The position numbers and the translations under genes are program-made. DNA of 64,000 bases, taken from positions 6,129 to 70,128 of the forward strand of contig OMXO01000004.1 in the NCBI GenBank assembly GCA_900315035.1, given 5' to 3'. Each line of letters opens with the position of its first letter. Positions within the stretch are counted from its first letter, which is position 1. The notes under the pieces are model-generated. The model was not told where the DNA came from and ran no database searches. It worked only from the letters and a program-made list of their open reading frames with translations. Of this stretch, positions 24,393-64,000 are shown in pieces. Source of the stretch: an uncultured Prevotella sp. (GTDB taxonomy: Bacteria > Bacteroidota > Bacteroidia > Bacteroidales > Bacteroidaceae).

Positions 24393-24464
24393 CAGTGTGA
24401 TTAAGAGAAATCACTGATACAAACACGAATTGTTTAACCATTTAACGAATAGGAGATTAAAAGT

Positions 24465-24569
24465 ATGATTACTTCAATGATTACACTGATGGAAATGGGC
24501 GCTTTGCTTTTGGCAGGAACAGTATTCAGTGCATGGATGGCAAAGCACAACAACCTGGAGGTTCGCTAA
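24465..24569 (+). CDS. Candidate small hydrophobic protein (34 aa)
   Basis: Below the ORF-track length cutoff. My own translation is MITSMITLMEMGALLLAGTVFSAWMAKHNNLEVR*. It is preceded by AGGAG (24451-24455) and a -7 box (24385-24392), and followed immediately by a hairpin plus T7 terminator. Confidence 0.35.
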   Translation: MITSMITLMEMGALLLAGTVFSAWMAKHNNLEVR

Positions 24570-24584
24570 CCTTCAGGTTTTTTT
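24554..24584 (+). terminator. Intrinsic terminator of the small-ORF unit
   Basis: CCTGGAGG-TTCGCTAA-CCTTCAGG forms an 8-bp stem with one G-U pair, followed by T7. The stop codon lies in the loop. Confidence 0.6.
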
Positions 24585-24733
24585 ATGCTTGAGGGTCTTT
24601 GCTTCTTACAGGTGTCTTCTGGTGCACCGAGCGGCCGCTTGGTTTGTCCAAGAATTTCGTATATTGCTGAATCGACCCGTCTTTTTCATTTCCTTTGGTT
24701 ACAAGTGCTTATTAGTTAGGTGATTTTTGTTAC

Positions 24734-24751
24734 CCAGTTAGGCCGCAAATT
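24734..24751. repeat. Conserved 18-mer CCAGTTAGGCCGCAAATT (copy 1)
   Basis: Identical to 59237-59254. In both copies it lies 22-23 nt left of the leftward -7 box and is followed by the shared TCGAC(A/G)GTGCAAAG. Confidence 0.9.
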
Positions 24752-24773
24752 CCGTATTTTTTCGTCGACAGTG

Positions 24774-24781
24774 CAAAGGTA
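24774..24781 (-). promoter_or_regulatory. Leftward -7 box at the left edge of palindromic element A (no CDS downstream)
   Basis: Minus-strand TAccTTTG within CGTACCTTTGCAC, the mirror image of the rightward box at 25085-25092. Confidence 0.35.
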
Positions 24782-24817
24782 CGAAATTTTCAGAGTACCT
24801 CCAAATTATTTCACCAT

Positions 24818-24838
24818 AAAAGCACGTTAAAAAGCACG
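24818..24838. repeat. Direct pair AAAAGCACG-TT-AAAAAGCACG (element A), mirrored at 25028-25049
   Basis: Direct repeat with a ~11-12 nt period. The mirror copies on the right arm are CGTGTCTTTT and CGTGCTTTTT. Element B has the analogous AAAACCGCACTT/AAAATCGCACTT at about 59317-59340. Confidence 0.7.
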
Positions 24839-24860
24839 CAACCACGCAAAATGCCAAAAC

Positions 24861-25013
24861 GCTACAGCGCTACAGTGCTACAGTTAGAAAACTAGCAATC
24901 AAAAAGCAAAAAAATAATTCTATATATATTTATATATATATATAAATATATATAGGCATATTTATTGAGGTGCGGTGACCATTATTTCAACTGTAGCACT
25001 GTAGCGCTGTAGC
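24861..25013. repeat. Element A core: perfect 25-bp inverted repeat of tandem octamers flanking a 103-nt interior
   Basis: The left arm 24861-24885 is GCTACAGC GCTACAGT GCTACAGT T. The right arm 24989-25013 is its exact reverse complement AACTGTAGCACTGTAGCGCTGTAGC. Confidence 0.95.
24920..24955. repeat. Element A centre: perfect 36-bp palindrome, A/T-only apart from the terminal C/G
   Basis: The sequence is CTATATATATTTATATATATATATAAATATATATAG. All 18 base pairs were checked position by position. Confidence 0.95.
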
Positions 25014-25084
25014 ACTTTTTTGTCTTCCGTGTCTTTTCCCGTGCTTTTTTTGCTTTATTATTTTTCAGTACGGTCTTTTTTGCG

Positions 25085-25092
25085 TATCTTTG
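25085..25092 (+). promoter_or_regulatory. -7 box TAnnTTTG for the carboxylesterase (right edge of element A)
   Basis: TAtcTTTG, 36 nt upstream of the ATG at 25129. Confidence 0.45.
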
Positions 25093-25128
25093 CACTCGGT
25101 TACAAAACAAATAAAAATTGCTGAATAT

Positions 25129-26703
25129 ATGAGAAATAGGCTTGCAATCGTATTGACTCTGGGTGCCTTGATGATGGCGCATAGCGTGCTGGGACAGCCG
25201 CTGCTGAGAACCCATGTGGAAACAGGTGAATTGGAGGGAATACCCGACGGAGAACTTGTCGTGTTTAAGGCCATACCCTATGCTGCACCGCCAGTGGGCG
25301 AGTTGCGTTGGCGCGAGCCGCAGCCGGCCAAGCCCTGGACTGGTGTACTGAAGGCAGAGAATTTCGGCCCCTGGCCACCACAGCCTACACGCCCGGGCCG
25401 TACGGCCGACATGATGAGTGAAGACTGCCTGTATCTGGGGATAGCAACGCCTGCGAAGAGCGTCAGCGACCGACTGCCTGTGATGGTGTGGATCCATGGT
25501 GGAGGGTTTCAGACAGAGCACTATGGCGGCGACCTTTGGCGACTGTTGGCGCAACGTGGCGTGGTGATTGTCAGCGTGGAGTATCGCACAGGCGCGCTTG
25601 GGTTTATGGCGCATCCGGAATTGGCCAAGGAGAATAAAGACGGTCATTCGGGTAACTACGGTCTGCTCGACCAGATATATGCCCTGCAATGGGTGCAGAG
25701 AAATATCGGTCAATTCGGTGGTGATGCGAACAACGTGACGATCTTTGGAGAGTCGGCTGGTGCCATCAGTTGCAGTATGCTCTGTGCCTCACCGTTGGCC
25801 AAAGGACTCTTCCACCGCTGTATCAGTCAGAGTGGCGGTTCGTTTGCCCCCTGGCACGACGCACCTCGTGCACTGGGCATGGACGCCTCGCAAAAGGGCG
25901 CAGAGCAGCAGGGACTGGCCTTTCAGAAGCATCTGAAGAAAAAGAACCTGAAACAGTTGCGCCAGATGGACGCCATGGCGCTTTGTGGCAGCGATGTGGG
26001 CTTTGGCGGATTCTGGCCATGCGTGGATGGTTACGTGATTACCGACGACCAGTATCGGCTGTATGAGCGTGGCGAGTATAACGATGTGCCTGTGATCGTG
26101 ATGACCAACAGCGACGAGGGAGCACTTTTCAGTCCGGCAAACATCAAGGCTGAAGACTATCGGAAGACTGCTCAGGCCATCTTCGGCGATTGGGCTGACG
26201 AGGCTCTGAAGGTCTATCCCGGCAACACCGACGAGGAGGCCTGGCACGGCTTTGGCGACGCTTTTCGCGATCTGGGCTTTGCATGGCCTTCGTATGTCTG
26301 GGTGAATCTGCAGGCGAAGACGGGTAAGAGCGGTGCCTATGCAGCCTATCTGGCTCAGCCCTCGACACGCAGTTTCTCGCAGAACCCGCTTCGTCGGGGT
26401 GTGGCTCATGCCGACGATATCCTCTATCTGAACGGTGAGTTCCTGACACAGCCCGACAAGTATCCTGCCGAGTCGGCCGTAGCAGAGATCATCCAGCAAT
26501 ACTGGATAAATTTCGCCAAGACGGGTAATCCTAACGGCAAAGGACTTCCTTACTGGCCTACGTTCGATGATACGAAGCCCACGACGATGCAGTTCTCAAA
26601 CGGTGCATCGCTCATCATGAGACCGAATCGTGAACAGGTGGACTTTATCGACCGATTCATCAAGGCCAAGCGCGATGAAGCAGAAAAGAAGAGGGCTCGC
26701 TGA
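25129..26703 (+). CDS. Type-B carboxylesterase/lipase family protein, secreted
   Basis: The ATG at 25129 gives the signal peptide MRNRLAIVLTLGALMMAHSVLGQP. Oxyanion-hole motif WIHGGGF and nucleophile elbow GESAGA. Confidence 0.85.
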   Translation: MRNRLAIVLTLGALMMAHSVLGQPLLRTHVETGELEGIPDGELVVFKAIPYAAPPVGELRWREPQPAKPWTGVLKAENFGPWPPQPTRPGRTADMMSEDCLYLGIATPAKSVSDRLPVMVWIHGGGFQTEHYGGDLWRLLAQRGVVIVSVEYRTGALGFMAHPELAKENKDGHSGNYGLLDQIYALQWVQRNIGQFGGDANNVTIFGESAGAISCSMLCASPLAKGLFHRCISQSGGSFAPWHDAPRALGMDASQKGAEQQGLAFQKHLKKKNLKQLRQMDAMALCGSDVGFGGFWPCVDGYVITDDQYRLYERGEYNDVPVIVMTNSDEGALFSPANIKAEDYRKTAQAIFGDWADEALKVYPGNTDEEAWHGFGDAFRDLGFAWPSYVWVNLQAKTGKSGAYAAYLAQPSTRSFSQNPLRRGVAHADDILYLNGEFLTQPDKYPAESAVAEIIQQYWINFAKTGNPNGKGLPYWPTFDDTKPTTMQFSNGASLIMRPNREQVDFIDRFIKAKRDEAEKKRAR

Positions 26704-56620: not shown

Positions 56621-59110
56621 ATGGAGCAGAAGAAATATCTATTTATCATCAGTTTCCTTGTTTGTCTTCTTGCTTTGATGCCTTTATCCGCAGGAGCGCA
56701 GACTGATACGGAGATGCGCGATATCTACACGCAGGCAGAGAGCGATTACCAGATAGGCCGAATCGAACAGGCTCGCGATGCCCTGTTGCAACATCTCACC
56801 GACTTCCATGGGAACCAGCGCCAGAGTGCGCTCCGCCTCATTGCCCTTTGCTATCTGGCACGTTTCGATATGGAGAAGACGGAGCACTATGCCTCGCTGA
56901 TATTGCAGGATAACCCTTACTACAGCCCGTCGTCGCTTGATCCCGCGATCTTTGCCGATATCGTGAACAGCATCAAGTCTGGTATGACCGCTACCATTAC
57001 CACCGCTTCCAGTCAGACAGAGAGTCTGTTAGAGGTGCCTGTTCCCTCAGCGCTCATTACCGCCGAAATGATCAGGAACAGCGGAGCCCGAAATCTGCAG
57101 GAAGTGCTTGCTACCTATGTGCCTGGCATGAACATTGTCGATTGTAACGACGATATCAACATCGCCATGCGCGGCATCTACAGTTATACGCAGGAAAAGA
57201 TTCTCATCATGCTCAATGGGCATCGTCTGAACAGTTATGCTACCAACACCGCTGCGCCCGATTTCAGCATCTCCTTGGAGAATGTGAAACAGATAGAAGT
57301 GCTGCGTGGTCCCGCCTCCTCACTTTATGGCGATGTGGCTCTTACCGGTGTGGTGAATATCATCACCAAACAAGGAGCCGATGTGGACGGCATCAAGGCG
57401 AAAGTTGCGGCAGGTAATCACGGGCAGATCAAGGCCGACGCCATCCTCGGCAAGCGTTATTTCGACATCGACCTGCTCGTCTGGGGAAGTGCCTATCGCA
57501 ACAGTGGCGATCGGCCTATCGGCAATCATCCCTCCTATGACTTAGGCCTGCAACTGGGTTATAAAGGTCTGCAACTCATGTACGACACCCATTTCTCACA
57601 GGTTGCCGCCCCGTTTACCATGGGTTGTCCTGCCATGCCATACAACCGTGAGCGCTATATTACCCAAAATGCTTACGGTCCCAGTTTTGCTACCAGTTCA
57701 CGACATCTCGACCTGAGTTACAACCATCAGATGGGCAACTTGAATCTGAAGTATGCCGCCACCTACGACAAGTCGGATATGACGCGCTATCAGGTGCTTA
57801 GCGACGAGCCGTCACACATATTGTCTTGGACGCTCCCGTTGCCTCTTTACATGATACAAGTGTATGACTCTTTGGGAGGACTCTCCCGATATGTCAACGG
57901 CCAGGATCAGCACTTCGGCTTCCAGCTGAAGGGCAACTATGCCTATACACTGAGTGCCCGACAAAAGGGCCATATCAGTTTCGGAGCCGAGTATGGTCAC
58001 TTCAAACTCGATGACATGCGCTATCAGATGGGCTATAATTTCGTAGAGACATTCGCCGGGGATGTGAAGACGCGCGGAATCGGAAAGGGTAGAGAGAACA
58101 GTGCCAATGTCTATCTGCAACTGAAGCATCAGTGGGATTTCTCTCTCTTCTCCTATCCCTCTTCACTGCTTCTGAATGCCGGTATGCGTTTCGACTACAA
58201 GAACCACTATGACGATACTCAGGTGCGTGAACTGTCGCCTCGAGTGGCCCTCATCCTGTTGCGCCCCAAGTGGAACGTCAGGCTGAGTTATTCCAAGTCG
58301 TTTGTCGATGTACCATATCTCTATCGCAAATCCAATGCCCTCGCTGCATTGATTCGTGAGCGCAAAAACGATGAAAGCCTCTCGCCTGAGCGCGCTCACT
58401 CCTTCCAACTCTCATTTGCAGGACTAAACTGGGTGAAAGGGCTGAATTTCGAAGTCAACGGTTTCTACAATCATGCCTCAGACCTCATTATGACCGATAT
58501 TCTCACCTACAAGAACACGAGCCAGAACAGAACCGGCGGACTGGAGTTGATGGCTGGTTACAGACGGCCGAGGCTCACCACTCACTGGAACCTGACCTGG
58601 ACGCACACTTTCAAGTCGACTATCGTACCCATAGAACTCTACGAGAAACTGATGCCCTATTATTCTTATAACATCGATGACAACAATAATACCCCGGTCA
58701 TCATGTCGAATCTGGTAGTCGGTTGGCAGGCTGCGTCTCGGTTGCGACTTCATGCCCATGTGCTCTTCGAGAGCAGTCAGACATCGTATAACATCGATCT
58801 TGAGCAATTTGCCAAGACTCGCACCCAATACTTCTTATACGATCTTTACTACCCCATTCATGACATGGAGAAGCTGGCCGCTATCTACTGGGCTAGCGCT
58901 GTAGATGCTGCGCAGAAGACTGTTAGCCGTCATGAGATGTCTGCCCGCTGCATCCTGAACGTCGGTGGCGAATATACGTTCGGGCCCGTCACCATCGGGC
59001 TGGACATCCACAATCTTCTGGGTACTCGCTATAACCGTAGTGGCATGAACACGATCCTGATTCCCCAGCAAGGACGTTGGCTCATGGGCAGCATTGCCGT
59101 CAGTTTATAG
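56621..59110 (+). CDS. TonB-dependent-receptor-like outer-membrane protein with an N-terminal TPR-like extension
   Basis: 829 aa with a signal peptide. About 100 aa of helical TPR-like region (YQIGRIEQARDALLQHL...ALRLIALCYLARFDMEKTEHYASLIL). Plug-like region (VPVPSALITAEMIRNSGARNLQEVLATYVPGM...EVLRGPASSLYGDVALTGVVNIITKQG), then a long beta-barrel. Confidence 0.7.
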   Translation: MEQKKYLFIISFLVCLLALMPLSAGAQTDTEMRDIYTQAESDYQIGRIEQARDALLQHLTDFHGNQRQSALRLIALCYLARFDMEKTEHYASLILQDNPYYSPSSLDPAIFADIVNSIKSGMTATITTASSQTESLLEVPVPSALITAEMIRNSGARNLQEVLATYVPGMNIVDCNDDINIAMRGIYSYTQEKILIMLNGHRLNSYATNTAAPDFSISLENVKQIEVLRGPASSLYGDVALTGVVNIITKQGADVDGIKAKVAAGNHGQIKADAILGKRYFDIDLLVWGSAYRNSGDRPIGNHPSYDLGLQLGYKGLQLMYDTHFSQVAAPFTMGCPAMPYNRERYITQNAYGPSFATSSRHLDLSYNHQMGNLNLKYAATYDKSDMTRYQVLSDEPSHILSWTLPLPLYMIQVYDSLGGLSRYVNGQDQHFGFQLKGNYAYTLSARQKGHISFGAEYGHFKLDDMRYQMGYNFVETFAGDVKTRGIGKGRENSANVYLQLKHQWDFSLFSYPSSLLLNAGMRFDYKNHYDDTQVRELSPRVALILLRPKWNVRLSYSKSFVDVPYLYRKSNALAALIRERKNDESLSPERAHSFQLSFAGLNWVKGLNFEVNGFYNHASDLIMTDILTYKNTSQNRTGGLELMAGYRRPRLTTHWNLTWTHTFKSTIVPIELYEKLMPYYSYNIDDNNNTPVIMSNLVVGWQAASRLRLHAHVLFESSQTSYNIDLEQFAKTRTQYFLYDLYYPIHDMEKLAAIYWASAVDAAQKTVSRHEMSARCILNVGGEYTFGPVTIGLDIHNLLGTRYNRSGMNTILIPQQGRWLMGSIAVSL

Positions 59111-59236
59111 GGCGAAGATTTGTATCAATAAGTCAAAGATCAATAGATTGTCAGGTAAATTCTTTGTCTGCGATTCGGCTCTGTTTTTGGCTCTGGTTAG
59201 AAAAAATTGCCTCGTGCACTAGGAAAATTTTCCGCT

Positions 59237-59254
59237 CCAGTTAGGCCGCAAATT
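59237..59254. repeat. Conserved 18-mer CCAGTTAGGCCGCAAATT (copy 2)
   Basis: Identical to 24734-24751, in the same orientation and the same position relative to the rest of the element. Confidence 0.9.
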
Positions 59255-59275
59255 TCTGCCTCATTTTCGACGGTG

Positions 59276-59283
59276 CAAAGATA
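59276..59283 (-). promoter_or_regulatory. Leftward -7 box at the left edge of palindromic element B (no CDS downstream)
   Basis: Minus-strand TAtcTTTG within TTATCTTTGCACCGTCGA. Same context as element A (TTTGCAC-GTCGA). Confidence 0.35.
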
Positions 59284-59384
59284 AGCATAAATCAAAGACC
59301 CTGCAAACTTTTTTCAAAAAACCGCACTTAAAATCGCACTTTTTGTACCCTTATTATCTATGATAATATTTCGGGTCTTGTCTT

Positions 59385-59540
59385 AGTCATTTAGTCATTT
59401 AGTCATTTAGTCATTTTCGATACACACCTCCTCAAATAAGAAACAATATATAATATAAAATATATTTTATATTATATATTGAGCATAGTAGAGCTTGTGT
59501 CTAAACGATTTTGACTAAATGACTAAATGACTAAATGACT
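59385..59540. repeat. Element B core: perfect 29-bp inverted repeat of tandem octamers flanking a 98-nt interior
   Basis: The left arm lies within (TAGTCATT)x4 at 59384-59415. The arm 59385-59413 pairs exactly with 59512-59540 (TGACTAAATGACTAAATGACTAAATGACT). Confidence 0.95.
59444..59481. repeat. Element B centre: perfect 38-bp palindrome, A/T-only apart from the terminal C/G
   Basis: The sequence is CAATATATAATATAAAATATATTTTATATTATATATTG. All 19 base pairs were checked position by position. Confidence 0.95.
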
Positions 59541-59572
59541 GAGAAATGCTTGGATTTATCGAATCTTTTGAC

Positions 59573-59580
59573 TATTTTTG
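59573..59580 (+). promoter_or_regulatory. -7 box TAnnTTTG (right edge of element B)
   Basis: TAttTTTG, 30 nt upstream of the ATG at 59611. Confidence 0.4.
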
Positions 59581-63772: not shown

Positions 63773-63834
63773 CTCACTTGATGTTTATGTGGTTTTACTT
63801 ATATATATTCTGTTATAAACTTAATTTGTAAGTG

Positions 63835-63842
63835 CAAAGGTA
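63835..63842 (-). promoter_or_regulatory. -7 box TAnnTTTG for the nusB operon
   Basis: Minus-strand TAccTTTG, 62 nt upstream of the ATG at 63772. Confidence 0.4.
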
Positions 63843-63926
63843 GGCATTTTTCTGCGATGCTGCAAGAAAAACGGCGAAATATTGAGTTTTTTTTAGTAAA
63901 TATTTGGTTGGTAACGGAAAAAGTAC

Positions 63927-63934
63927 TACCTTTG
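63927..63934 (+). promoter_or_regulatory. -7 box TAnnTTTG with a -33 TTTG 20 nt upstream (gene off-window)
   Basis: TAccTTTG, preceded by ATTTGGTTGGTAA at 63902-63914. Confidence 0.4.
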
Positions 63935-64000
63935 CACCGCTTTTCTCAAAGGCACTACGATTTTTCGTGTGATGGCGAATTAAGCAAAAAGAAATTTTTA

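Follow-up and report, generated by a model that had tools for sequence, protein, structure and literature searches.

We found that a symmetrical stretch of intergenic DNA in an uncultured Prevotella sp. (referred to as element A) is a real, orphaned copy of a family of palindromic DNA cassettes in rumen Prevotella, which was not described in the publications found in a literature search and is apparently new. The whole stretch of DNA that was analysed, 64,000 nucleotides in length, is referred to as the window. Element A represents the upstream module of a multi-copy operon that encodes an HU-HIG (HU_rel) protein and a "smalltalk"-like peptide. In the window, the HU gene has been lost and a relic of its leader, both promoters and the core have been retained, with the right-hand promoter now serving an esterase gene.

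The centre of element A is a perfect 36-bp palindrome (24920-24955, no strand assigned) that consists of A and T only, save for a capping C and G. It is flanked by a left spacer of 34 nt (24886-24919) and a right spacer of 33 nt (24956-24988), which have no complementarity to each other, and then by two arms that form a perfect 25-bp inverted repeat. The left arm is an array of three tandem octamers, GCTACAG(C/T), on the forward strand (24861-24885; units GCTACAGC-GCTACAGT-GCTACAGT), and the right arm on the reverse strand (24989-25013) is its exact reverse complement, with the C/T variant among the octamers mirrored in the opposite arm. Farther out are a direct pair, AAAAGCACG and AAAAAGCACG, at 12-bp spacing inside phased A-tracts (24818-24838, forward strand), which is kept in many type-1 loci, and its mirrored counterpart, CGTGTCTTTT and CGTGCTTTTT, inside phased T-tracts (25028-25049, reverse strand).

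Two promoters, predicted from the established consensus of Bacteroides promoters, lie outside these pairs and point away from the core. The leftward promoter spans 24771-24808 on the reverse strand and consists of a -7 box at 24771-24783 (GTGCAAAGGTACG, reverse complement TAccTTTG) and a -33 TTTG at about 24798-24806 (reverse complement of CCTCCAAAT). Its -7 box is mirrored by the rightward -7 box at 25083-25095 on the forward strand (CGTATCTTTGCAC, TAtcTTTG), which together with the 5'UTR (25083-25128) drives the carboxylesterase gene (PF00135; 25129-26703, forward strand); this gene is covered by low-depth RNA contigs from about position 25131. The symmetry of the outer flanks runs through the promoter and about 35 nt of transcript, and in the mirror alignment the first ~35 nt of the rightward 5'UTR correspond to the start of the HU leader. 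Mirror symmetry of the promoters was also seen by eye in another locus, L004.

The preliminary description of this DNA had listed these features, and all of them are present at the positions it gave, far beyond chance. The octamer-pair pattern has four matches where 0.22 are expected, and none of 100 shuffles reached four. The single-stranded DNA fold of 24815-25055 is -58.1 kcal/mol vs. -23.8 +/- 3.5 in shuffles (z = -9.9), and the two folding z-scores obtained for cassette structure are -9.9 (element A) and -12.9; the suggested potential to form a cruciform or hairpin is therefore borne out by predicted folding. The flank-mirror score is 28.5 vs. 8.0 +/- 2.6, with a maximum of 22.5 in 500 shuffles. 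An assembly artefact of a hairpin-prone region is excluded, because the sequence of element A is identical in independent ENA metagenome assemblies (L180, L181, L214, and L217) and the depth over it equals that of its flanks at ~100x (Logan unitigs, run X1). Nor is the structure unique to its locus, as had been considered, since a copy of the same layout is present at 59237-59580 in the window and further copies are present in relatives. A tRNA scan found none.

The second copy (element B, 59237-59580) is likewise an orphan and uses a different octamer. It consists of an 18-mer (59237-59254), a leftward -7 box (59273-59285), arrays of four TAGTCATT units (59381-59416 and 59512-59544) around a 38-bp perfect A/T-rich palindrome capped by C and G (59444-59481), and a rightward -7 box (59573-59580) before a DUF4251 gene. 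Strain comparison of element B returned one identical copy and no other. An empty-site comparison with the esterase orthologues of 80 other Prevotella genomes found neither the element nor synteny with the window and was uninformative; the same comparison for the TonB-receptor gene beside element B found no downstream synteny.

A family-conserved 18-mer (CCAGTTAGGCCGCAAATT; 24734-24751, within the relic leader of element A) recovered 19 loci, 17 of them in MAGs of rumen Prevotella or related Bacteroidales and two being chance matches. The gene to the left of the promoter in these loci is HU-HIG/TIGR01201, and the leftward promoter sequence is near-invariant upstream of HU-HIG genes. Among the HU-HIG (HU_rel) loci of rumen Prevotella MAGs, about 40 of 55 have the array-palindrome-array layout upstream. 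The family layout comprises the leftward promoter with a leader of ~165 nt, inverted arrays of 7-9-bp tandem units, and the A/T palindrome, whose centre lies at a median of 160 bp upstream of the HU-HIG -7 box; a rightward promoter also follows in the cassette loci that were read by eye. In its complete form, the module is a quasi-palindrome of ~400 bp with two outward Bacteroidetes-type promoters. Its core begins with phased A-tracts and GCACG boxes, followed by an array of 2-4 units, a first spacer, a perfect A/T-only palindrome no longer than 38 bp, a second spacer, and the inverted array. The 18-mer search and the HU-HIG loci support a promoter-carrying repeated module that also occurs in relatives, and the earlier remarks that it holds more structure than a plain divergent promoter and that its arms are arrays of short units are likewise supported.

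Element A has the HU-type promoter, the leader with the 18-mer that goes with type 1, and CA-phased inverted arrays around an A/T-only palindrome, and lacks an intact HU-HIG gene (PF18291/TIGR01201) after the leader. By leader alignment, the relic 5' leader of the lost gene occupies 24600-24765 on the reverse strand and aligns with the ~165-nt leaders of intact HU-HIG genes in L002, L007, L009, L011, L016, and L017, while tblastn found no HU ORF or HU-HIG relative left in the window. What had been read as a leftward promoter firing into non-coding DNA is actually the promoter and degenerate relic leader of this lost gene. The decisive context, namely the HU-HIG family, the hypervariability and the allele swapping, is invisible from the sequence alone.

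The cassettes appear to stay with HU-type promoter DNA. In 761 kb of Prevotella DNA unselected for HU, we found three cassettes only, each beside HU-promoter-type DNA, with a clear promoter/leader relic in two and a GCAC-like box only in L144. The five copies found without an HU search (elements A and B, L133, L144, and L163) are all orphan or relic copies with no intact HU-HIG gene; the HU-type promoter/leader relic is clear in four of them, and the tie of L144 to the HU promoter is a AAAAGACACGC-like motif alone. BLASTN against plasmid and phage collections gave no match, and array-pattern searches of IMG/VR gave either zero matches or four unrelated simple repeats. HU-HIG itself was found in IMG/VR at six loci near contig ends, and none of the three inspected has a cassette. 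Contig ends are also frequent among the HU loci returned from metagenomes (30 of 80 lie within about 720 nt of one), and assembly may break at the cassettes.

The repeat units are hypervariable in sequence and follow a common rule, NNNN-CA-[G/C/T]-T. The CA is in one phase in 28 of the 31 distinct units (mean 13.3 and maximum 23 for shuffled units), 32 of 43 arms have a period of 8 (range 7-9), and the arrays are of one polarity, with CA pointing inward. Arms may differ in copy number or variant order while unit identity stays the same. Dozens of species and 31 unit types share this architecture, and perfect palindromes never exceed 38 bp in many independent cassette families. Orphan copies keep perfect symmetry after loss of the HU gene.

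We considered co-variation of the HU-HIG sequence with the unit sequence and rejected it, because the HU domain is near-invariant; for example, L050 and L051 encode HU-HIG proteins with no difference over 135 aa, and their units are different. With a nearly invariant HU domain and wholly different units, HU-HIG, if it is the binder, cannot read the variable unit positions. A search of solved-structure sequences with the HU-HIG protein gave only marginal HU matches, and the classic HU arm motif with its intercalating proline is not evident in it by eye. No cassette accompanies a more distant HU-HIG gene of 58% identity. RNAalifold on 21 leaders recovered only the invariant 3' hairpin, the register of the alignment being too loose for pair counts in the 5' helices. 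Repeat-arm hairpins of a similar kind occur in the HU-smalltalk spacer; a match of the upstream units to the tandem repeats of this spacer was rejected as inconsistent by eye. The one analysis of HU-HIG located in the literature reported no conserved gene linkage and guessed a role in genetic conflict (PMC5499826).

The core varies among strains. At locus A, same-species metagenomes with near-identical flanks contain at least three unrelated cores and one core-less allele. Arm copy number also differs between strains (2, 3, or 4), as does the central (TA) copy number of the element A palindrome, which is 34 bp long in L219 and L227 and still perfect. Such a difference of the entire repeat core from strain to strain suggests that the regulatory or recombination site evolves fast. 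These four structural alleles, together with junctions at array ends, support a role as a recombination or replacement hotspot, in line with the recombination hotspot among the functions proposed earlier. The core-less allele and the cassette-free distant HU-HIG gene imply that the core is dispensable for promoter activity as such.

Our leading interpretation, a tentative one inferred from the anatomy, is that the core may well serve a bidirectional promoter module as an upstream architectural or operator element that works at the level of DNA, and that it is at the same time a recombination hotspot. The preliminary description had listed candidate functions without choosing one and in this cannot be called wrong. 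The core would act at the DNA rather than the RNA level, and the A/T palindrome would readily extrude as a cruciform, or act as a melting centre, in a negatively supercoiled zone between the divergent promoters. For the outer arms, full extrusion is costly on account of the non-complementary spacers of 33-34 nt, which leave the central palindrome as the sole obvious cruciform. The symmetric arrays would let a DNA-bending or structure-specific protein load cooperatively; the most economical candidate is the HU-HIG protein, whose binding would lead to autoregulation and to co-regulation of the neighbour gene. HU proteins prefer cruciform and kinked DNA, and among dinucleotide steps CA/TG is the most flexible. 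A binder would read no more than the CA(N)T part of the unit and the geometry, and the remaining positions would drift, being homogenised by slippage and arm-to-arm templating. The hairpin-prone structure would break and recombine, which would explain both the strain-to-strain core differences and the end of homology at the outer side of the distal array.

Alternatively, the binder could be a protein that reads short contiguous repeats, as ribbon-type (RHH) repressors do. Contiguous 7-8-bp repeats are bound by MetJ, omega and ParG. The cassette arrays resemble the RHH arrays (the omega heptads WATCACW of inc18 plasmids, the ParG tetramer boxes with 8-bp period at TP228 parH/OF, and the 8-bp metboxes of MetJ) in having contiguous polar units of 7-8 bp that occur in at least two copies, in both direct and inverted sets, and lie immediately before promoters. 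The TTTTCACT/TATTCACT type of unit even comes close to the WATCACW of omega, and, as among RHH systems, the array sequence changes with the architecture kept. Unlike in RHH systems, no RHH or other cognate gene was found in cis of the cassettes, the operon downstream encoding HU-HIG and the smalltalk-like peptide only; there are many different units in one chromosome; the partner HU-family DNA-binding domain does not co-vary; and a long A/T palindrome divides the arrays into symmetric halves, about 100-180 bp across.

Two described systems combine a palindrome with a DNA-binding protein in a comparable way. In Vibrio parahaemolyticus, a cruciform in the exsBA intergenic region is attenuated by HlyU, and the proposal there is that this promoter-region palindrome, when extruded, gates transcription and is acted on by a DNA-binding protein; it differs from the cassettes in being a single locus of conserved sequence with a known wHTH regulator, no tandem-unit arrays and no hypervariability (PMC10325908). 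In Porphyromonas gingivalis, a 77-bp inverted repeat at the capsule locus is functionally linked to the HU protein PG0121, but this case involves a classical HU and a transcribed stem-loop at one locus without repeat arrays (PMC3969353).

Instead of a regulatory element, the cassette could be a mobile or recombinational one, foldback/MITE-like or att-like, with array ends cut by a trans-acting enzyme, although we consider this doubtful. Its promoters would then spread, and adjacent genes, often those of defence, would be captured and exchanged. Such a mechanism would account for a core that is present, absent or wholly replaced at one locus. Copies with the same core are homologous only to 0-10 nt outside the distal array. 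L002 and L015 share a core within one MAG and have different right flanks, although every copy is attached to HU-promoter-type DNA. A 1.7-kb gene replacement between L049 and L097 ends exactly at the array; in some strains (L183 and L184) the right array meets an IS end at its outer side, and another insertion adjoins the right arm in some strains. Intact modules adjoin defence genes, with RM, TA, Abi, WYL or IS across the cassette in 14-15 of 20 loci. The single array polarity, with CA inward, and the 25-bp perfect arms, which could be the terminal inverted repeats of a MITE, are also in keeping with mobility. However, the cassette-less allele (L213 and L220) provides no clean empty site, target-site or other flanking duplications are not evident by eye at the inspected junctions, and no transposase or recombinase is consistently linked. 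At locus A, the swapped segment is bounded by GCACGCA| in the 24818-24838 pair on the left and by |CTTTTTTTGC in 25028-25049 on the right, that is, 20-35 nt outside the arrays, as expected of ordinary homologous recombination in conserved flanks. Moreover, 31 units would demand many enzyme specificities, and no cassettes were found away from HU-promoter-type DNA; a free-standing MITE is thus unlikely.

Inversion of the core was considered and rejected as well: all 21 aligned type-2 cores face the same way with respect to the HU gene, and comparison of flipped with same-orientation spacer similarity gave no convincing flipped pairs, both of which also argue against mobility. Like Bacteroidales invertons, the cassettes are associated with promoter-region inverted repeats (15-35 bp long and 75-200 bp apart in invertons) and with strain variation. 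Unlike invertons, which have the promoter inside the repeats and occur in both orientations, the cassettes have their -7 boxes outside the arms, an enclosed segment of one orientation in all related copies examined, and no linked invertase. Human PATRRs are similar in their A/T-rich, near-perfect palindrome centre, their size and sequence polymorphism, their cruciform, and their recurrent breakpoints. They differ in being eukaryotic and hundreds of bp long, with no promoter role and no unit arrays, and in having their breakpoints at the centre of the palindrome, not at the outer ends of arrays. [quoted passage not shown] The cassettes, unlike REPs, lie between promoters, have tandem sub-repeats that differ from copy to copy (31 different units), and are tied to one gene family (for background on REPs in the E. 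coli BIME/REP comparison, see PMC4550694).

It is improbable that the cassette has no function of its own and is a self-perpetuating quasi-palindrome or microsatellite, maintained by slippage and hairpin-templated correction, tolerated upstream of HU-HIG promoters and copied along with the promoter module. The variation in arm copies and central TA number is of the slippage type, comparable repeat-arm hairpins occur in the HU-smalltalk spacer, the cassette-less allele is viable, and the distant HU-HIG gene lacks a cassette, all of which this explanation would accommodate. It does not readily explain why the architecture, the CA phase, the 7-9 period and the perfect palindromes of at most 38 bp are held over dozens of species, or why perfect symmetry persists in the orphan copies. 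Bacteria normally select against long perfect palindromes, which also speaks against mere tolerance.

A replication origin or a centromere-like partition site, with iteron-like arrays around an A/T-rich unwinding element, is very unlikely: there is a formal resemblance to origins with iterons and A/T-rich DNA, including the octamer iterons of the phage P4 ori, and to the omega and ParG centromere-operators with their short contiguous repeats before a promoter, but two copies lie within 35 kb here and several per genome, cumulative GC skew climbs straight through element A without a turn, the plasmid and phage collections gave no match, the units are 7-9 bp vs. the usual 17-22 bp of iterons, and the only conserved partners seen among cassette neighbours are HU-HIG and the smalltalk-like peptide. 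We give equally little credence to a transcribed structured RNA, for example an sRNA with a long hairpin or a signal for processing or attenuation; the predicted hairpins are very stable, and type-2 cores have a small spacer hairpin with changes that by eye appear compensatory, but both recognizable promoters are directed away from the core, Rfam gave zero matches at the gathering score for the window and nine related loci, and true-RNA contigs (of low depth only) cover flanking genes and neither core A nor core B.

More speculatively, and rather unlikely in our view, the cassettes could be fast-switching DNA "address" elements of a new class that give each of the near-identical HU-HIG/smalltalk operons and its divergent defence gene a differing hypervariable repeat code, or their array ends could be the crossover points of a dedicated system for defence-gene capture and exchange. 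In the former case, the code would be read by a factor of the host or of an invader. In either case, the replacement of cores at the level of strains would represent adaptive diversification under biological conflict rather than neutral turnover.

HU-HIG is among the largest unexplained lineage-specific expansions in Bacteroidetes. The family now gains a conserved non-coding partner, consisting of a structured leader together with an upstream cassette that is palindromic and repeat-coded, and a genomic context of restriction-modification, toxin-antitoxin and Abi gene neighbours. For bacterial promoter DNA, it is unusual that an entire core differs within one species on near-identical flanks, and this replacement bears on the reshuffling of defence islands and promoters. 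Orphan copies, in turn, provide promoters for ordinary metabolic genes, such as the esterase gene in the window.

The centre of the symmetric structure, element A, is a perfect 36-bp palindrome at 24920-24955 that consists of A/T only except for its capping C and G, and is flanked by non-complementary spacers of 34 and 33 nt. Outside these lies a perfect 25-bp inverted repeat (24861-24885 / 24989-25013) with arms of the form GCTACAGC-GCTACAGT-GCTACAGT, in which the C/T variant is mirrored, followed by a AAAAGCACG pair with its mirror-image pair on the opposite side, and by mirrored -7 boxes. All of these parts were located where the preliminary description had placed them, by sequence reading and a repeat finder applied to 24400-25500. 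The symmetry extends further than that description saw, as the outer flanks are mutually mirrored through the promoter and ~35 nt of transcribed sequence (mirror score 28.5; 500 shuffles gave 8.0 +/- 2.6 and reached 22.5 at most). Given this score, the excess of the octamer-pair pattern (4 occurrences vs. 0.22 expected), and the ssDNA folding of 24815-25055 (-58.1 kcal/mol vs. -23.8 +/- 3.5 for shuffles; z = -9.9), a chance origin of the symmetry is excluded. An assembly artefact of a hairpin-prone region, raised earlier as a concern, is likewise ruled out, since the sequence recurs unchanged in several independent metagenome assemblies and its depth in the unitigs of one read set (run X1) is ~100x, equal to that of the flanks.

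Nor is the element unique to one locus. Scanning the entire window for inverted repeats revealed a core with the same layout in other letters at 59381-59544, with four TAGTCATT octamers per arm around a perfect 38-bp A/T palindrome (folding z = -12.9). The complete second copy, element B (59237-59580), is an orphan flanked on the left by a relic HU leader and on the right by a DUF4251 gene's promoter; the only other strain contig recovered, L185, carries it unchanged. Elements A and B have the leftward promoter and the exact 18-mer CCAGTTAGGCCGCAAATT in common. The genome search earlier proposed for this 18-mer, run on one genome per species, returned 19 loci, of which 17 belong to rumen Prevotella or related Bacteroidales MAGs, several per genome, and two are chance matches in other phyla. 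In most of these loci the parts come in the same order. A conserved left module of ~110 nt with the leftward promoter stands first, then two copies of AAAAGCACGC and short units in a tandem array; beyond an A/T-only palindrome the array recurs inverted, and a rightward promoter then precedes an unrelated gene. Elsewhere in the window (63832-63937), mirrored -7 boxes GTGCAAAGGTAGG... / ...CTACCTTTGCAC stand 64 nt apart with no palindrome between them; this looks like an ordinary divergent promoter pair, a cassette-free comparison.

In the canonical left side, as seen by flank alignment and translation, the leftward promoter leads through a ~165-nt leader into a gene for a 179-199-aa protein starting MALKVKAVER, which is an HU-HIG protein (PF18291 in Pfam, E = 1.6e-13); its match to HU_rel (TIGR01201, NCBIfam) falls under the model's cutoff. 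A gene for a "smalltalk"-like 35-aa peptide, sub-threshold for NF033879, lies 3' of it. The HU gene has been lost beside both A and B: no HU ORF is detectable in the window, and the genes around the two elements are ordinary ones (DUF3160, carboxylesterase, aldehyde dehydrogenase, M13 peptidase, TonB-dependent receptor, and DUF4251). To the left of A only a decayed leader (24600-24765) is left, adjoining the terminator of a conserved 34-aa ORF, and the leftward promoter, previously described as firing into non-coding DNA, is therefore a relic. The 34-aa hydrophobic ORF (MITSMITLMEMGALLLAGTVFSAWMAKHNNLEVR, 24465-24569, forward strand), with a strong terminator hairpin directly after it, is called as a gene with identical product in more than 100 contig-index blocks, and had no match in Pfam or NCBIfam.

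The HU-HIG 5' leader itself (~165 nt before the ATG in loci L020-L099) is long and conserved, with relics at 24600-24765 and 59110-59270. By eye, its helices show compensatory changes (TAGATGC/GCATCTA vs. TAGTTGC/GCAACTA; AGCC/GGC vs. CTAT/ATAG), and an invariant 3' hairpin, GGTTTTAAGG...CCTTAAAA, lies just 5' of the ATG; RNAalifold confirmed this 3' hairpin alone. The leader, which matched no Rfam family, is a candidate new cis-regulatory RNA. In the same loci, the short spacer from the HU-HIG stop to the smalltalk-like ORF contains variable tandem repeats (e.g., GAGTGAA x4, GGTGAAA x4, and GAAGAATT x4), with hairpins of tandem-repeat arms in many loci (CACAGATCT.../...AGATCTGTG; GTTTCAG x3 / TGAAAC x3) that repeat the theme of the upstream cassette within the transcript.

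An HU-HIG protein search of the one-genome-per-species collection yielded more than 436 related loci. Of 55 loci whose upstream sequence sufficed, about 40 show a pair of inverted arms (15-36 nt, internal period 7-9) located 230-330 nt upstream of the ATG, 75-180 nt apart, and enclosing a perfect A/T-only palindrome. In many unrelated sub-families this palindrome measures exactly 38 bp, a length it never exceeds, and its centre lies a median of 160 bp upstream of the -7 box. When a stricter detector was applied to 761 kb of Prevotella DNA not selected for HU (esterase and TonB loci), only three cassettes were found, none with an HU gene beside it; two of them (L133 and L163) adjoin a clear HU-type promoter or leader relic, and the third (L144) has a AAAAGACACGC-like motif only. 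The core is therefore tied to the HU-type promoter, and orphan copies are common. Since a more distant HU-HIG gene, at 58% identity, is preceded by a short leader and lacks the cassette, the cassette appears to be a trait of the rumen Prevotella HU-HIG clade rather than of HU-HIG genes generally. A contig end lies within ~720 nt in 30 of the 80 HU-HIG loci listed, consistent with assemblies breaking at the repeat. The cassettes of L133 (757-972) and L144 (813-932), from two different Prevotella species, have unrelated units (ACGCAGTT / GTGTCATGA) upstream of what is apparently, by eye, the same ortholog, possibly a GH97-family glycoside hydrolase, so that the cassette type is not conserved between species at this locus.

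Cores also differ within the window's own species. Among the many contigs from different rumen samples that encode exactly the window's esterase and 34-aa ORF, the flanks of locus A are ~98-100% identical and the locus has at least four structural alleles. Allele 1 (window, L180, L181, L214, L217, and L219) has GCTACAGY arms, with a 34-bp, still perfect palindrome in L219 and in L227 from another collection (central TA slippage); allele 2 (L182, L215, L216, L221, and L222) has TAGTCAT heptamers with an unrelated 38-bp palindrome and spacers; allele 3 (L218) has ATACAG(T/A) units and a third palindrome; and allele 4 (L213 and L220) lacks the core, its promoters being ~80-95 nt apart. The replaced segment begins directly after GCACGCA on the left and ends directly before CTTTTTTTGC on the right, and L216 has an insertion immediately right of the cassette. 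In L183 and L184 (1-250), an IS end (transposase N-terminus with ORF start MRILNPRIPKEKKAEIISAYLTGDNSYE, and a terminal hairpin-like repeat) replaces the sequence left of ...TTTTGTCTTCC, with the insertion point at the outer edge of the right array; both contigs end within it. In L227 (1-150), other DNA, with six dispersed (C/A)TGTCAAC motifs ~20 nt apart, stands in place of the allele-1 core's left flank; cassettes of the L031/L088 type have this motif as their tandem unit.

Where the same core occurs at different sites, homology is lost 0-10 nt outside the distal array (L002/L005/L015, L049/L097, L062/L074, L051/L060, L081/L096, and L094/L096). L049 and L097 are orthologous, with 94-99% identity on both sides of a 1.7-kb replacement (an AAA_14-DUF4143 gene vs. 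an unrelated 206-aa ORF), one boundary of which coincides exactly with the array's outer end. The first divergent gene across the cassette is of defence or mobile-element type in 14-15 of the 20 intact loci examined (raw count), namely MNT nucleotidyltransferases and WYL-WCX regulators (two loci each), HSDR_N, an MmeI-like restriction enzyme, Dam and Dcm methylases, AbiEi, AAA_21, AAA_14-DUF4143, XRE, S24 peptidase, M15 peptidase, and an IS110 transposase. These junctions and neighbours would suit a mobile or att-like recombination element, but that reading is less likely, as no target-site duplications were evident by eye at the junctions inspected, no enzyme is consistently linked, and no copies were found away from the HU promoter; judged by their defining tests, the cassette is unlikely to be a MITE or an inverton.

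The arrays follow a rule of their own. Among 43 clearly periodic arms (period 8 in 32, 7 in eight, and 9 in three) there are 31 distinct consensus units, and 28 of these have CA in one phase, NNNN-CA-[G/C/T]-T (letter-shuffled mean 13.3, maximum 23). The arrays are polar, since by eye the HU-proximal top strand shows CA without TG in ~17 units, and no unit shows the opposite pattern. Both arms of a cassette always share the unit, and the register is not always perfect: G/C variants are ordered differently between the arms of L081 and L094, and one allele of locus A has two, three or four units on the left vs. four on the right. Pairing is thus conserved less strictly than unit identity, period and CA core, which argues for something that reads the DNA rather than for a hairpin alone. 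That the element is a functionless, self-perpetuating quasi-palindrome is improbable. In the type 2 sub-family an extra inner inverted repeat (CTTTTGACAT...ATGTCAAAAG) is conserved, the distal spacer is rich in pyrimidines, and changes in a small spacer hairpin look compensatory. In 21 loci these features all keep one orientation with respect to the HU gene, and a comparison for flipped cores gave no convincing case. The HU domain is near-invariant across loci with wholly different units: over 135 residues L050 and L051 do not differ, with TTATAAC vs. TTATTCAC as their units, L075, L065, L081, and L092 have the same N-terminal hairpin and four different units, and variation is confined to the C-terminal tails (low-complexity or Ig-like). 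The determinant of specificity is therefore not the HU protein.

The anatomy and family, the tie to the HU-HIG promoter, the unit rule, the core differences between strains, and the junctions at array ends are all observed directly. Both recognisable promoters point away from the core, which we infer to be an upstream architectural or operator element common to the two. Divergent transcription would leave the DNA between them negatively supercoiled, and a perfect A/T palindrome there would be the kind of sequence that melts or extrudes most readily. The arrays, with their polarity, 8-bp units and flexible CA step, resemble sites at which a bending or structure-specific protein would load cooperatively. 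Cruciform and kinked DNA is preferred by HU-family proteins, and an autoregulatory HU-HIG loop would account for the conservation of geometry and CA(N)T alone, with the remaining positions drifting and being homogenised by slippage and arm-to-arm templating. The binder may alternatively be a protein of short contiguous repeats, such as MetJ, omega, and ParG bind. A hairpin-prone structure would also be a fragile, recombinogenic site, which could account for the core differences and for the duplications and gene replacements ending at the array. We are confident of what element A is; how it works in this account is possible but doubtful, and the composite of the two is tentative, at somewhat under even weight.

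Contigs from true RNA libraries, which are low in depth, cover the esterase and the gene to the left of B but neither core, slightly favouring action at the DNA level. A structured RNA, for which an Rfam search matched no family, is very improbable, as is a replication origin or centromere; the cassette does not pass the tests that define iteron origins. In its working it is most like a combination of RHH operator/centromere arrays and a cruciform-gated promoter. BIME/RIP elements and human PATRRs share single features with it, and it does not pass the defining tests of REP/BIME. Full-text searches found no description of the family, and the element matched nothing in plasmid and phage collections.

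Given that the neighbours of intact loci are so often of defence or mobile type, the HU-HIG/smalltalk modules appear to lie at the border of variable defence-gene slots. This position fits the role in "biological conflict" that had been guessed for HU-HIG on other grounds (PMC5499826).
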